Positions 36,132 to 41,348 of a DNA stretch of 64,000 bases are shown piece by piece. The position numbers and the translations under genes are program-made. Source of the DNA: a virus; IMG/VR virus record IMGVR_UViG_3300032829_000004, positions 1-64,000 of that record. One strand, given 5' to 3'. Position 1 is the first letter of the stretch; every line of letters begins with the position of its first letter. The notes beneath the pieces were generated by a model. It was not told the DNA's origin. It searched no databases and worked only from the letters and a program-made list of their open reading frames with translations.

Positions 36132-37313
36132 GTGCCGGTGACCGTTCCCGCGCACGTGCAAGCGGAGTCGCATCACTACGTGATGCACTTCCCGCCCCAC
36201 CCGGCCAGGGCCGACGACCCGCATTACGCCGACTTCGACCACTACCACCGCAAGACGCGGGCGACCGCACGGTGTTACATCGGTGAGCGGATCGGGTTCG
36301 GCGACTGCAAAGACGCGCAGTGCAAGCCGTGCCCGCCTCCTGAAGACGGCGGCGAGCAGCCGGGGCTCGAGCTGCACCATGCCCACGTCGAGTTCAGCCT
36401 CCAGAACGGCGTCGACCTTGCCGCACTCGAGAAGGACTACCCCGGCATCTCCGACCCGTCTCAGGTCGGGGCATGGGTCGAGTCGGAGGCGAACTTCCGG
36501 TGGCTCTGCGTCGCCGAGGGATCGCCCGTGCTGATGGCGGACGGCACGACGCGCCCGATCGAGTATGTGCTACCCGGCGAGCAGGTCATCGGCAGAGACG
36601 GACTGCCTCACCTTGTCGAAGTAACCAGCCGGAAGAGGTATCGCGGCGAGCTCGTATCGTTCGGCTGCGCGTCGTTCACGCCTGAGCACCGCATTCTTAG
36701 TCATCGAGGCTGGCTCTCTGCGGCCCATGTTTTCCGCCAGGTCTGGATGCATGGCCCGGACGTGATCGCGCTGCGATGCGAACAGAACCAGATTCGCTCT
36801 GGCGTTGTCGGCGCGGTTCCCGTTGAGGTGGTGAACGCGCTCTCGCGGCAGCAGCGGGCGCCCTATCCAGTCTTCCATGACCACGACGTGCTCCATGCGA
36901 TGCCGGCTGCCGTCCCAGATGCGGATGTAGCCCTTCGCGGTGACCCAGGCCGTCCGGTTGCCGACGTTCCACTTCGGGAGCTTGTTCAGCTCCGTGAGGC
37001 GGCACTCGTTGGTGCAGTAGCGCCCGACGTTCGGGCGGGAGCGCCAGTGCGCCGGTCGGTGGAAGGTCTTCCCGCAGGAGGCGCAAGCCCAGAGATGGGA
37101 TGGGTCACAGCGATGCCCAGCCGGACGGCCGCTTTTACCGGATGGGTTCACGACCTAAGTGTAGCGCATAGCCACTCTTTTGTTGTGGGCGGCATCGCGG
37201 CTCATAACTGTGCCTGGCATCACAGGGGGGCGGCCGGGGCGCATACGGCGTCGCATTCCGATTGGGAGGCGAGCCAGTACGTGCAGGGTCTGATTTCGCA
37301 GGCGGCGAAGTGA
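36132..37313 (+). CDS. HNH-like (DUF6424-like) protein interrupted by an intein
   Basis: Extein LELHH...NFRWL|CAWHHRG; intein between. Confidence 0.8.
   Translation: MPVTVPAHVQAESHHYVMHFPPHPARADDPHYADFDHYHRKTRATARCYIGERIGFGDCKDAQCKPCPPPEDGGEQPGLELHHAHVEFSLQNGVDLAALEKDYPGISDPSQVGAWVESEANFRWLCVAEGSPVLMADGTTRPIEYVLPGEQVIGRDGLPHLVEVTSRKRYRGELVSFGCASFTPEHRILSHRGWLSAAHVFRQVWMHGPDVIALRCEQNQIRSGVVGAVPVEVVNALSRQQRAPYPVFHDHDVLHAMPAAVPDADVALRGDPGRPVADVPLRELVQLREAALVGAVAPDVRAGAPVRRSVEGLPAGGASPEMGWVTAMPSRTAAFTGWVHDLSVAHSHSFVVGGIAAHNCAWHHRGAAGAHTASHSDWEASQYVQGLISQAAK
36507..37208 (+). mobile_element. Intein, 234 aa
   Basis: Block A CVAEGSPVLMADGTTRPIE, block B FTPEHRI, block F VHDLSV..SHSFVVGG, block G AHN followed by +1 Cys. 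Confidence 0.9.
36570..37151 (-). CDS. HNH homing endonuclease encoded antisense inside the intein
   Basis: Zn finger CASCGKTF...YCTNEC; GYIRI, EHVVVME..IGRPL...ERVHHLNGNRADNARANL. Confidence 0.85.
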   Translation of the reverse strand: MNPSGKSGRPAGHRCDPSHLWACASCGKTFHRPAHWRSRPNVGRYCTNECRLTELNKLPKWNVGNRTAWVTAKGYIRIWDGSRHRMEHVVVMEDWIGRPLLPRERVHHLNGNRADNARANLVLFASQRDHVRAMHPDLAENMGRREPASMTKNAVLRRERRAAERYELAAIPLPAGYFDKVRQSVSADDLLAG

Positions 37314-38068
37314 CCGGCATCCCCGTCCAGGGCCTGTCGCCGGCAAAGGCTGGAACGGGCGTGACCAGGTCGATTGTCGTTCACCAGGTCCGCGTCGCGG
37401 ATGAGGGCCGCTGGCAGTGGCGGGGTTCCCGCCTGACCTGGCAGCCTCCGCACCGGTACGGGTTCGAGGCGGAGTTCGACCCGTTCCCCGCCTACCCCCA
37501 CGATCCTGACGCGGCCCGCAAGGCGGCCGATCATGTCGCCGCGTGCTGCCCTCCGCTGTGGGACGTGAACCTGTACCTCGCCGACCGCGAGGAGACGTCC
37601 CGGTCCAACGGCCACTCCAACGTCCACGAAGGCGGCCGGTACGAAGGCTCCGAATGGGTGCAGGACGAGCCGTCCGGGATGATCCTGCTGTCCGCCAAAC
37701 GGATACCGCCGCACCCTGCGATGACCCGCCACCTGGTGGCCCACGAGTACGGGCACAACGTCGAGTACATGCTGAACTCGCTGCGCGGCGGCAGGCACGT
37801 GGCATCATGCGACGACCTCGAACGCGAGTACGCGGAAATGCGCGGCCTCCCGCCGTCGTCGGTCCACCACGGGGAAGGCGCGACCTGGCACGACTCCGCC
37901 TGCGAGATCATGGCGTGCGACTTCCGGATCGTCGTCTGCGGCACCGAGGCGGAGTTCTGGCCCCACCCCGGCATCCCACGGCCGGAAGAAGTACCCGCCG
38001 TACGGCAGTGGTGGGTCGGCGCGACGGGACAGCTGGCGGATGGCCTGGCCGCGAAGCAGGCGGCATGA
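37310..38068 (+). CDS. Zincin-like metalloprotein
   Basis: LVAHEYGH (HExxH) and downstream EIMA.DF; GTGA coupling. Confidence 0.6.
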   Translation: MTGIPVQGLSPAKAGTGVTRSIVVHQVRVADEGRWQWRGSRLTWQPPHRYGFEAEFDPFPAYPHDPDAARKAADHVAACCPPLWDVNLYLADREETSRSNGHSNVHEGGRYEGSEWVQDEPSGMILLSAKRIPPHPAMTRHLVAHEYGHNVEYMLNSLRGGRHVASCDDLEREYAEMRGLPPSSVHHGEGATWHDSACEIMACDFRIVVCGTEAEFWPHPGIPRPEEVPAVRQWWVGATGQLADGLAAKQAA

Positions 38069-38141
38069 CCTCCAAGGCCCGTGCTGGGGCGCTGGTCTTC
38101 CCGGGCGGCGGGGACGGGACTCCCGAATGGCAGGCGGCTTC

Positions 38142-38510
38142 ATGAGGCAGCACGATGCGGTCACCCATCCCCGGGACCTGATCGCCACGGAGAAGCGCGC
38201 GGTCGCCAGGTTCAACGACTGGGCGGCCACTCATCTCGCCGCGTTCTTCGGCCTGGTGTGGACGGTGTGGTTCTTCGCCGCCTGGCCGCTGGCGTCGCTG
38301 CTGCTGCCGAAGGGCCTCCAGTCGGTGGCGTTCTTCATCTCCTCCGGCTGGATCCAGCTATGGGCGCTGCCGCTGCTGAACTACGTCTCCAACCGGACCC
38401 AGGAGATGCAGGGCGCGCAGTCCGACGCGCAGCACCTCGCGCTGACTCACATCGCGAACACGGTTGACGACATCAAGGCCGCTCTCGCGGCAGGGAAGGA
38501 CCCGGCATGA
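38142..38510 (+). CDS. Two-TM membrane protein, possible holin
   Basis: Two hydrophobic helices, directly upstream of the lysin (ATGA overlap). Confidence 0.55.
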   Translation: MRQHDAVTHPRDLIATEKRAVARFNDWAATHLAAFFGLVWTVWFFAAWPLASLLLPKGLQSVAFFISSGWIQLWALPLLNYVSNRTQEMQGAQSDAQHLALTHIANTVDDIKAALAAGKDPA

Positions 38511-39424
38511 CGGCCAGCGCGCAGGGCGCGGACACTTCGGCCTACCAGCAGCCGCTCACCGCCGCCGTGCTGAAGGCAGCGGGCTTGTCGTTTGCGTTCG
38601 CGAAGGCCGCCAACGGGACGGCGGGGGAAGACCCGGATTTCGCCGTGTCCTGGCAGGCGATCGCCGAGGCAGGCCTGCACCGCGGTGCCTACCATGAGCT
38701 GACCGGGGAGGACCCGCTGCTCCAGGCGGGCACTTTCATGGCCGTCGTCGCCGGCCGGGGGCTGAAGGCGGGGGACATGCTCGCCGTCGTCGCCTCCGAC
38801 TATGCCGTGGCCGGGCGGCAGGCGAAGGCGTTCCTCGACGCGGTGAAGGCGGCGGCGGGACCGGAATGCCCGGTGCTGCTCTACTCGGACCTGTCGGCGC
38901 TCCCGTCACTGGCGGAATGCTCGGGGTACCCGCTGTGGCTCGCGTATTACGCGGACTCGGCTCCCGCCTCGGTGGCCCCGTGGGACCGGTGGACGTTCTG
39001 GCAGTACCAGGCGGGCGGCGGGGCTGACGGCGGGGACCGTGACGCGTTCAACGGCACCGTGGCGGAGCTCGACGCGTGGATCGCATCGTACGCGCACCCG
39101 GAACCTCCGGCGGACTGGACGTTCGGCCCGGTACGGGACCTGACCGTGGAGGGCGCGGGGCCGCACTCGGTGAAGCTCGCCTGGGAATCCCCGGCCGTGC
39201 CGATGCCCGCGGCGGTCGGCCACTACCAGATCGTCGTGCGGAAGGACGCGCAGGACGTCGGAAGCTACCCGAGGGTCACGCCCACGGGGGCAAGCCCCGA
39301 AACGTGGCAGGGCGGCAGCCTCCAGCCGGGCACCGCCTACGAGGCCCTGGTCCGCGCGGTCGCCCGGGACGGCGGCCACGCCTCCCCGTGGGCGGCGGCG
39401 GCCTTCACGACGGCAAGCGCCTAG
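38507..39424 (+). CDS. Endolysin: GH25-like muramidase plus FN3 domain
   Basis: GADTSAYQ, AFAKA, RGAYH, PLWLAYY, WTFWQY, DRDAF; FN3 VKLAW...LQPGTAYEALVRAV. Confidence 0.85.
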   Translation: MTASAQGADTSAYQQPLTAAVLKAAGLSFAFAKAANGTAGEDPDFAVSWQAIAEAGLHRGAYHELTGEDPLLQAGTFMAVVAGRGLKAGDMLAVVASDYAVAGRQAKAFLDAVKAAAGPECPVLLYSDLSALPSLAECSGYPLWLAYYADSAPASVAPWDRWTFWQYQAGGGADGGDRDAFNGTVAELDAWIASYAHPEPPADWTFGPVRDLTVEGAGPHSVKLAWESPAVPMPAAVGHYQIVVRKDAQDVGSYPRVTPTGASPETWQGGSLQPGTAYEALVRAVARDGGHASPWAAAAFTTASA

Positions 39425-39503
39425 CAGTCCGGCCTGAGATGCCCGCCCGCGATCACCCTGCCGCACTCTGCGGCCGGGTGCACCAGGCCAGTTCAGGAGG
39501 CGT

Positions 39504-41348
39504 GTGACCTCTTACGAGATTTCCCAGCTGTCCCAGCTGTCCGCCCTCGCGGCGGGAGACCTGGCACCAGTCGTCGACGTGTCGGACACGTCGACTCCCC
39601 CGGCAGGGCCGGGCGGCAGCGACAAGTCGGTTCCGGCGGCCCAGCTGGGAGACCAGCTTTCCTCGCTCGCGAAGGGCACCGCGTCGAACGCCGGCCTGAC
39701 GAGCTTGTGGGCGGCGATAGCGAACCGCAACAGTGCGCGCTGCGAAATCATCGTGCTCGGCGACTCGATCACGGAGGGGCAGGGCGCGTCCCTGTGGGCT
39801 AACCGGTGGGTGGTGCAGGCGCAGGCCGCGATCCGCGCCGCCTACCCGACGACGGCGAACGGGTCGGGCGGCGGGTACGGGTTCATCCCCATCCAGTCCG
39901 CCGGCTCGGACACGTTCACGTGGCCTGTCACCCAGACGGCCGGCGCGGTGACCGAGTTCGACCTGGGTCCGGTCCGCAACAGCACCGTCACCAGCGCGAC
40001 GGGCTCGACCTGGACGTACACGGCCACGCCTGGGACGACGTCGGTCAAGATCATGTACTACGACGTGGGCTATTCCGGCAGCTTCACGTACAAGGTCAAC
40101 TCGGGCAGCACCACGACGGTGTCCAACACGATGACCGGGAAAGAGCTGCTCACCTCCTCCATCCCGATGGTGGCCGGGGACGTCCTGACGATCGTGTTCA
40201 CCGCCGGAACCGGGATCGTGCTGGACGGGCTGCTGCACTTCGCCGGCGACGAGAACTCCGGGATCACGCTGCACGGCTGCGGCCACTTCGGCTGGTGCGC
40301 CGGGACGGAAATGAGCATCGGGTGGAACCAGCCGGAGACGTACAGCCTCAACTGGGCGCAGTGCTACGCCAACGGGTTCCCGACCACCCCGGCGGCGCTG
40401 ATGATCATGCTGGGCGTCAACGACGCCCGGATCACCTCCGTCGGCTCCGGCGGCGGCCGGACCGCCGCCCAGTTCGCCAGCGACCTGCAAGGACTCGTCT
40501 CCACGATCCGGGGAGCGGCGACGGCGCTGGCCACCCTGCCGCTCATCCTCGTCATCCCGTACCAGGCGAATGAGACGGTGCAGGACGCCGGCGGGTGGGC
40601 GGCGTACGCGGCGGCCATAAGGTCAGTCGCCGTCGCCGATGCCGTCGGGGCGATGGTGATCGACCTCAACTACCGGATGCCGACGGTCGCCAGCGACTAC
40701 GACGGCGGGATCTTGTACATCGACGACTACCACCCGACCGACCTGGGCCACCTGCTGCTCGGAAAGCTCGCCGCGGGCGCCGCAGAAGGACTGCCGCCGG
40801 AGGCGGTCACCACTCCGGCGCGGTGGTCGGCGGCCGAGCCGCTGGCGAGCGGGGAGAGCATCCTTCCCCGGTTCGCGCTGAACGGGAGCCTGGCCTATCC
40901 GGCGGGGACGCTCGCACTCGCCTCCTGGGTAGCGGCGACGTCCGGCACGGCCACCGCGGTGCGGGTGGCGACGACCGGCACCGCGGGCTCCGGCCTCACC
41001 TACGCGGCCGTGGGCGTCTACGAGCTTGACAGCAGCGGGAACGGGCAGCTGCTCGCGTCCACGGGCGACGTGCACGCCACCGCGTTCACCAGCGCCTACA
41101 CCGTCTACGACCTCACGCTGACGAGCAGTTTCGCCCGGAACGCGGGGCAGCGGTATGCGCTGGGGATGCTGTTCACGGGCACCACCCCGCCATCCGTCGC
41201 GGCGGTCGGCTATCCGAACTACGGGTTCGGTTCCGTCGCCCCGTGGGCGTGGGGCGGGATCACCGGGCAGTCAGCGCTCCCCGCCACGTTCCTGGCCTCC
41301 TCTCTGGCGTACACCGACGGGCCGCCGGCGGCGACGGTGCACCCGTGA
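39504..41348 (+). CDS. SGNH/GDSL hydrolase-containing, probably virion-associated protein
   Basis: VLGDSITEG, IMLGVND, DDYHP; N-terminal ISQL...D..PVVD fiber-type motif. Confidence 0.78.
   Translation: MTSYEISQLSQLSALAAGDLAPVVDVSDTSTPPAGPGGSDKSVPAAQLGDQLSSLAKGTASNAGLTSLWAAIANRNSARCEIIVLGDSITEGQGASLWANRWVVQAQAAIRAAYPTTANGSGGGYGFIPIQSAGSDTFTWPVTQTAGAVTEFDLGPVRNSTVTSATGSTWTYTATPGTTSVKIMYYDVGYSGSFTYKVNSGSTTTVSNTMTGKELLTSSIPMVAGDVLTIVFTAGTGIVLDGLLHFAGDENSGITLHGCGHFGWCAGTEMSIGWNQPETYSLNWAQCYANGFPTTPAALMIMLGVNDARITSVGSGGGRTAAQFASDLQGLVSTIRGAATALATLPLILVIPYQANETVQDAGGWAAYAAAIRSVAVADAVGAMVIDLNYRMPTVASDYDGGILYIDDYHPTDLGHLLLGKLAAGAAEGLPPEAVTTPARWSAAEPLASGESILPRFALNGSLAYPAGTLALASWVAATSGTATAVRVATTGTAGSGLTYAAVGVYELDSSGNGQLLASTGDVHATAFTSAYTVYDLTLTSSFARNAGQRYALGMLFTGTTPPSVAAVGYPNYGFGSVAPWAWGGITGQSALPATFLASSLAYTDGPPAATVHP

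Follow-up and report, generated by a model that had tools for sequence, protein, structure and literature searches.

We describe a genetic arrangement in a phage genome in which an intein on one strand encloses a putative homing endonuclease gene on the other. The window analysed, 64,000 nucleotides (nt) in length, corresponds to positions 1 to 64,000 of IMG/VR record IMGVR_UViG_3300032829_000004, a complete virus record (97.8 kb, ~70% GC, terminal repeats present). Its plus strand carries an open reading frame (ORF) for a small phage protein that is split by a class 1 intein, and the middle of that intein is covered on the minus strand by an ORF for a zinc-ribbon HNH protein (Table 1). Plus and minus codons are exact reverse complements in a shared register over the middle ~135 intein codons, and the minus ORF runs into the splicing domain at both ends, where its start overlaps block F and its last ~50 codons overlap the N-terminal splice lobe. 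An earlier interpretation made from the letters of the window alone (hereafter the sequence-only reading) had pointed out splicing motifs on the plus strand, a zinc finger and HNH core on the minus strand, the lack of a recognisable motif in the plus-strand middle, and the overlap of the minus ORF ends with splicing-block codons, and had combined these into a two-strand selfish element. These observations were borne out by the analyses below: both sets of motifs are present, both ORFs are open, and selection acts on the splicing lobes in the plus frame and on the HNH protein in the minus frame, the plus-strand reading of the nuclease region being a predicted structureless linker.

Table 1. Features of the intein host gene and of the antisense nuclease gene in the window (aa, amino acids).
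Feature	Position	Strand	Remarks
Host ORF	36132..37313	+	393 aa, open; exteins 125 + 34 aa
N-extein	36132..36506	+	125 aa; small phage protein without known family, HNH-like motif
Intein, class 1	36507..37208	+	host residues 126-359
Intein N-terminal splicing lobe	36507..36722	+	block A Cys1 (CVAEGSPV), block B TPEH
Intein linker	36723..37130	+	antisense nuclease gene as read in the plus frame; no structure predicted
Intein C-terminal splicing lobe	37131..37208	+	block F WVHDLSVAHSHSF, block G AHN
C-extein	37209..37313	+	begins at the +1 Cys (CAWHHRG...); stop codon included
HNH homing-endonuclease ORF	36570..37151	-	193 aa, open; HNH_3 and PHROG HNH matches
Conserved nuclease part	37151-36723	-	aa 1-143
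Nuclease tail		-	aa 144-193; dictated by the plus frame, overlaps the N-terminal splice lobe
Zinc ribbon	37002..37085	-	C23, C26 ... C46, C50
HNH core	36747..36899	-	MEH88 ... ERVHH107-108 LNGN ... DN116 ... N120L ... H130 ... H135
Nuclease start codon	37149..37151	-	GTG, complementary to CAC, the block-F His codon
-10-like hexamer	37158..37163	-	TACACT, with 6 nt between it and the start codon

The splicing motifs were all found on the plus strand, namely CVAEGSPV with Cys1 at 36507, TPEH, WVHDLSV, and AHN/C with the downstream junction at 37208/37209, and an alignment of 24 sequences showed C1, T58, H61, H233, N234 and the +1 Cys to be unchanged throughout. An AlphaFold (AF2) model of the intein, built on the same 24-sequence alignment, reached a predicted local distance difference test score (pLDDT) above 90 at intein residues 1-90 and 197-234 and only ~30 over residues 95-194, so that the linker is predicted to be disordered; the linker also matched no Pfam or PHROG family. 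When the confident part of the model was searched with Foldseek, it matched the mini-inteins Prp8, RecA, DnaB and gp41-1 with a probability of 1.0 and template modelling (TM) scores of ~0.6-0.7 (normalised to the target). The two ends of the plus-strand intein are thus predicted to fold as a HINT domain, and the conserved residues, together with purifying selection on the exteins, suggest that the precursor is spliced.

In two homologues (P0013 and P0016; alignment A1, columns ~380-495), most of the nuclease region is gone and the two splice lobes remain, which makes them naturally occurring mini-intein forms of this family. Four others (P0022, P0023, P0025 and P0028; alignment A1, columns ~465-520) have ~40-60 additional plus-strand linker residues, as does locus L147, where on the minus strand the additional linker encodes a second CxxC...CxxxC zinc-ribbon unit at the N-terminus of the nuclease.

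The minus-strand ORF contains the motifs CASC...YCTNEC and EHVVVME...ERVHHLNGNRADNARANL and matched twelve PHROG HNH families (best 7e-13). The residues C23, C26, C46, C50, H88, H107, H108, N116, N120, H130 and H135 are unchanged in nine close minus-strand proteins. A structural model of the protein contains a zinc ribbon (residues 20-50) and an HNH core (residues 70-135) at a pLDDT of 70-85, and the best structural match of this model in VIA-align was the homing endonuclease I-HmuI (1u3e; Z 6.5, root-mean-square deviation 3.4 over 72 residues), well above the runner-up I-PpoI (Z 3.9). The match to I-HmuI argues for a beta-beta-alpha-metal fold, as predicted from a model that reaches a pLDDT of only 70-85 over this region. 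At 36850-37080, the codon positions have the base composition expected of a minus-strand gene, and in the exteins and the N-terminal lobe that of a plus-strand gene. The minus ORF has also been called as a gene, in place of the plus ORF, in five contigs (P0046-P0050, 68-93% identity), three of which (P0046, P0048 and P0050) carry a precomputed PF13392 annotation. These five copies also lie inside inteins, because they share the C-terminal tail, which can be explained only by the plus-frame splice lobe.

The family is represented by ~25 diverged homologues (38-65% identity) that share the site and length of the intein, except that P0013 and P0016 are without the middle. The sequence-only reading had proposed looking for homologues with both frames intact and comparing selection in the two frames, and both lines of evidence came out in its favour. 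At the DNA level, an intact antisense zinc-ribbon HNH ORF in the shared register was found in the window and at three further loci: L081 and L159, both from IMG/VR, and L147, from a Dormibacteria metagenome-assembled genome, with extein identities to the window of 0.66 (L081), 0.44 (L147) and 0.37 (L159). Changed codons were sorted by whether the change was synonymous in the plus frame only or in the minus frame only. Between the window and L081, plus-only and minus-only synonymous changes numbered 65:12 in the exteins and splice lobes and 7:34 in the middle (Fisher p=6e-13), and the same switch of strand was seen in two pairs that include L147 (p=1e-8 and 5e-6). Resolved by part for the window and L081, synonymous changes favoured the plus frame by 28:4 in the N-extein and 9:1 in the C-terminal splicing lobe, and plus-frame synonymous changes were also in the majority in the N-terminal splicing lobe. 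Amino acid identity in the middle was 0.76 in the minus frame and 0.57 in the plus frame.

The same signature extends to 23 further homologues available only as plus-strand proteins, whose minus frame was inferred through the fixed codon register, a method to which minus-strand stops are invisible. The four Cys, five His and Asn/Asp of the HNH protein were encodable in 96-100% of these homologues, as were several Arg, Gly, Glu and Leu; within this set, the HNH core residues reached 100% (the plus residues flipping between V/M, V/I, A/T/S/P and L/F) and the four zinc-ribbon Cys 96-100% (the plus residues alternating between A and T). The plus-strand flips, V/M opposite His, A/T opposite Cys, V/I opposite Asn/Asp and A/T/S/P opposite Arg, are exactly those that synonymous change on the minus strand predicts. 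Where the plus residue differed from that of the window, the minus residue of the window was still encoded in 46% of cases in the middle compared with 25-31% elsewhere. Taken together, these codon comparisons indicate that both strands are kept by selection, the plus strand for the splicing lobes and exteins and the minus strand for the nuclease. They also bear on the idea that the minus ORF is a shadow ORF and that the plus-strand middle is a degenerate in-frame endonuclease domain. Such an account can appeal to the general frequency of shadow ORFs and to nothing more, and it is refuted by the occurrence of HNH matches solely in the minus frame, by selection on that frame and by the predicted disorder of the plus-strand middle; we consider it to have next to no chance of being correct.

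Features at the 3' end of the intein suggest how the nuclease gene may be expressed. Its start codon coincides with the block-F His codon, a position common to the window, L081, L147 and L159 (ATG or GTG, complementary to the CAC or CAT codon for the His of WVHD). A hexamer of the form TANNNT stands at the same 6-nt offset in all four intein loci (TACACT, TACGCT, TATGCT and TACACT) as well as at the free-standing locus L158 described below (TAAACT), within a conserved 20-nt element (37157-37176); across the window, just 0.08% of positions have a TANNNT. The plus-strand codons that make up the hexamer are rare in the phage (AGT, 2.5% of Ser codons; GTA, 2.2% of Val codons), and the adjoining codons CTA (0.4% of Leu codons), TCT, TTT and GTT are rare as well. 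A 6-nt spacing of TANNNT is that of the -10 elements of leaderless mRNAs in actinobacteria. The hexamer probably acts as the -10 element of a leaderless mRNA from which the nuclease would be translated.

The same region bears on codon usage, which the sequence-only reading had judged to be less GC-biased at third codon positions (GC3) within the element than in its flanks, and had taken as a sign of recent arrival. The impression was real and had been misread: AT-rich third positions are limited to 37131-37208, where the rare codons of the hexamer region explain them, and at 36850-37080 the minus frame has a GC3 of 0.9-1.0 and is thus well adapted. Recent arrival can be rejected because the minus gene has host-like GC3 and because the family has diverged to about 30% intein identity, which indicates that it is old.

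We assessed how the distribution of the intein relates to the history of its host gene. In a tree of the extein columns (128 rows), the 29 intein-bearing alleles required 24 gains or losses, of which at least eight were forced by well-supported branches; shuffled labels averaged 26. Intein and extein histories disagree: the extein closest to that of the window (P0003, 91%) harbours an intein whose identity is no more than 62% over the splice lobes and 40% over the middle, and the inteins most similar to that of the window (L081 and P0002) reside in exteins that are 66-68% identical. This sporadic distribution is consistent with homing. Intein-less alleles of the kind the sequence-only reading had predicted do exist: the empty site NFRWL/CAWHHRG was found in L004, with near variants in L001, L007 and L018, and the predicted DNA of the empty site is ...TTCCGGTGGCTC/TGTGCCTGGCAT..., the slash marking the insertion point. 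A relic, with an intein that is passed on vertically and has kept its splicing and an antisense HNH gene that is inactive and decaying, would account for the nuclease region having already been deleted in P0013 and P0016. We regard it as improbable, since all catalytic and zinc-binding residues are conserved down to ~30% intein identity, minus-frame synonymous changes are in clear excess, and the distribution is scattered and discordant, as just described.

The nuclease also occurs outside the intein. In a 47% GC IMG/VR phage (L158, same contig as L082), the host gene is intein-less and a zinc-ribbon HNH gene adjoins it (arrangement at L158:1968-2790). This HNH gene has 139 codons, is 53% identical to the window nuclease core, and is convergent with the host gene, the two 3' ends overlapping by 80 nt; a near-identical layout was found in L083 and L084. 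Upstream of its ATG lies a 20-nt stretch that is identical at 18/20 positions to window 37157-37176 and reads on the other strand as HT*SLAHSHF, a broken intein block F. This remnant is most simply read as the trace of a nuclease cassette that moved out of an intein, taking its 5' control region along, and came to lie beside the target gene; alternatively, an intein may have captured a free-standing homing endonuclease gene (HEG). As a separate observation, an HNH_3-like gene lies ~260 nt 3' of an intein-less host-gene allele at L026:1295-1504, on the same strand, and is a further HEG neighbouring this gene.

Relatives from the same HNH clade were found antisense in other hosts. Inteins in terminase-like genes carry such a relative at IMG/VR loci L128-L133, L145, L187, L188, L203 and L235, at 30-45% identity and with the long host frame open throughout; one of these loci, L129, apparently has several inteins within a single 1459-aa frame. 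Two further relatives are antisense in very long ORFs (L206:2001-2312, 1305 aa; L233:196-507, 835 aa), and in these two host frames, which read ...IPVDVVN..., no intein splicing blocks were visible. These may be the antisense counterpart of the intein-less insertions typified by the ShiLan domain (see below).

Such copies raise the question of whether the nuclease still serves the intein. It could be under selection and no longer have a role in intein homing, as an independent HEG of free-standing type or a nuclease of phage competition that cuts at some other site and uses the linker as a safe harbour. Members of the same HNH clade stand free beside an intein-less allele (L158, L082-084) and lie antisense in large ORFs where no intein blocks could be seen (L206, L233), and the closest GenBank phage relatives are out-of-frame ShiLan-domain HNHs without an intein (PMC11855218). 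This account is nevertheless unlikely, given that the pairing of nuclease and intein recurs at a single insertion site in exteins that have diverged strongly, that intein alleles are dispersed among empty alleles, as homing predicts, and that even the free-standing copy still adjoins the same host gene.

The reading that we favour, to which we assign a probability of roughly 0.8, is that of a two-strand element, in which a class 1 intein and a separate antisense zinc-ribbon/HNH_3 nuclease gene move together. Host mRNA would be translated straight across the nuclease region; the HINT lobes (intein residues 1-90 and 197-234) would fold and splice the precursor, discarding a disordered linker of ~100 residues that is only the nuclease gene read in antisense. 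A minus-strand message of its own would give rise to the nuclease, starting at the complement of the block-F His codon, and the TANNNT hexamer, placed in block-F codons through rare synonymous choices, would probably drive this leaderless mRNA. The nuclease probably cuts intein-less alleles (NFRWL/CAWHHRG) in co-infecting phages, a target that we infer from the empty site and the distribution of the intein, and repair after the cut would copy in the whole two-strand element.

Several results weigh against this reading. The sequence-only reading had suggested scanning both strands with profile hidden Markov models, and the scan did match the intein on the plus strand and HNH_3 on the minus strand, each slightly below its gathering score. 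The Pfam Hom_end_hint match on plus-strand residues 126-167 (E=4.5e-6, 27.2 bits, gathering cut-off 32.1) covers the first 42 intein positions, that is, block A alone; the HNH_3 match on minus-strand residues 88-127 had E=4.3e-5 and 23.5 bits (gathering cut-off 24.8). The Foldseek match of the minus-strand model was weak (E 0.7), and a profile of the minus-strand protein family had no match among PDB sequences. A scan for sigma-70 consensus promoters also found none, as only a -10-like hexamer and no -35 element is present, so that the promoter idea stands on the conserved hexamer by itself. Because the intein-less rows of the extein tree were the 80 most similar relatives, the scatter of the intein is not drawn from an unbiased sample. 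Finally, a stop-free antisense frame in the same register is found in 53% of 194-codon gene stretches of this 70% GC phage; the open double frame is therefore unremarkable here, we rejected double openness as significant in itself, and the case rests on homology and selection.

The same background rate lends some plausibility to an inverted HEG insertion that disrupts the host gene, the plus frame being open by chance and no splicing taking place. We judge this very improbable, since the nuclease gene is bracketed by a complete set of invariant class 1 splicing residues and a confidently predicted HINT fold, purifying selection persists on the exteins of alleles that carry the intein, and the whole plus frame is kept by ~25 diverged homologues. 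A one-off inverted insertion, the outcome that the sequence-only reading had set against its own proposal, is excluded by the existence of this homologue family.

The host protein itself belongs to a widespread phage family that neither Pfam nor PHROG models. Intein-less alleles had no match in Pfam or PHROG, and a tblastn search of the whole plus-strand ORF against GenBank phages returned zero matches. At least 494 relatives were found in soil and peat metagenomes in one scan, and the best 80 of these were intein-less without exception. A protein-language-model search grouped the host protein with phage hypothetical proteins, the nearest named clusters being HNH/HNH_2, a relationship that we treat as a lead only. 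The family has an HNH-like motif of its own (ELHHAH ... N.RW.C/..HHRG), and the intein splits the protein at the Cys of N.RW.C/..HHRG, the most conserved motif of the host gene.

The host ORF sits shortly upstream of genes for a GH25 endolysin and a GDSL lipase, which places it at the edge of a lysis cassette. The 3' neighbours (window 37262-41348) include genes for a protein of 268 aa that has an HExxH-like motif (VAHEYGHN) and matched no family, a 156-aa membrane-like protein and an endolysin with GH25 and FN3 domains (38507-39424), followed by a 614-aa GDSL lipase-domain protein (39504-41348).

The sequence-only reading had known of no described class of this kind, a suggestion of novelty that does not hold, as antisense LAGLIDADG and VSR-like nucleases in inteins have been published (bioRxiv 10.1101/2025.01.02.630785). 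Antisense LAGLIDADG ORFs were reported in the inteins of Synechocystis DnaX and a Chloroflexus SpoVR-like protein (Gorbalenya 1998; Gogarten 2002), the dnaX case being treated further in a 2026 preprint (bioRxiv 10.64898/2026.09.14.751524). As in the window, these inteins have their nuclease ORF antisense between the splicing blocks and an open host frame, their in-frame reading lacks a recognisable fold, and their sporadic distribution suggests continued homing. They differ in having a LAGLIDADG rather than a zinc-ribbon HNH_3 nuclease and in their host genes; as far as we are aware, a start codon or promoter within block F has not been described for the LAGLIDADG cases.

The nucleases described for actinophage inteins are HNH (in frame), LAGLIDADG and VSR-like (both antisense) and EndoVII-like (out of frame), and free-standing HEGs were proposed to have invaded (mini-)inteins (Gosselin, Arsenault & Gogarten, bioRxiv 10.1101/2025.01.02.630785). 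The VSR-like and EndoVII-like cases share with the window a HEG of free-standing type in the endonuclease slot of the intein. They have another fold and reside in DNA polymerase, minor capsid, TerL and ThyX genes, whereas the host in the window is a small HNH-motif protein adjoining lysis genes. Inteins whose HNH is in frame (same preprint) likewise combine an intein with HNH-family homing, but their nuclease is part of the intein polypeptide, whereas that of the window is a separate protein encoded on the other strand. In fractured genes, split inteins lie on both sides of a VSR-like, free-standing HEG (Dassa et al. 2009, cited in that preprint); the intein of the window is contiguous.

A further parallel is the ShiLan domain, a hidden out-of-frame HNH in the DNA methylases of mycobacteriophages (Arsenault et al. 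2025, PMC11855218). Among GenBank phages, the minus ORF is most closely related to ShiLan-domain HNHs (~40% identity across zinc ribbon and HNH), and a check of frames placed the match out of frame with gp65. Here too the nuclease is nested within a host ORF whose frame is open; unlike in the window, it is encoded in a shifted frame of the host-gene strand, without a detectable intein or splicing domain, and in another host gene. A literature search for an antisense HNH in an intein found none, the HNH of the 2025 preprint being in-frame, although this is not proof that none has been published. The layout is therefore known but rarely documented, and the HNH nuclease and the host gene are new to it; what sets the element apart from the described antisense subtypes is that its nuclease is zinc-ribbon HNH_3 rather than LAGLIDADG or VSR-like. 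The start and putative promoter embedded in block F, and the apparently escaped free-standing copy, are new and testable details.

The element adds HNH as a third nuclease family, and a new host gene, to the inteins with a separate antisense mobility enzyme. By the comparative evidence, a stretch of ~430 bp is selected as a protein on one strand and tolerated on the other as a disposable linker, and this linker suggests that ~100 arbitrary residues are tolerable in the endonuclease slot of the window intein. The coincidence of the start codon with the block-F His codon, together with the conserved -10 hexamer of rare codons, offers a concrete and testable mechanism of expression. Gene callers pick up one member of the gene pair and pass over the other, so two-strand elements of this kind are systematically missed. 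The free-standing copy with its remnant of block F makes the model in which a free-standing HEG invades or leaves a mini-intein directly testable. Tentatively, and at somewhat less than even odds, we suggest that the nuclease gene with its start and promoter is a self-contained cassette, its 5' control region encoded in block-F codons and the whole able to leave the intein, and that intein and HEG are separable selfish partners that alternate between nested and neighbouring positions around their common target. If so, they would parallel, by means of protein splicing, the collaborative homing that has been proposed for group I introns.

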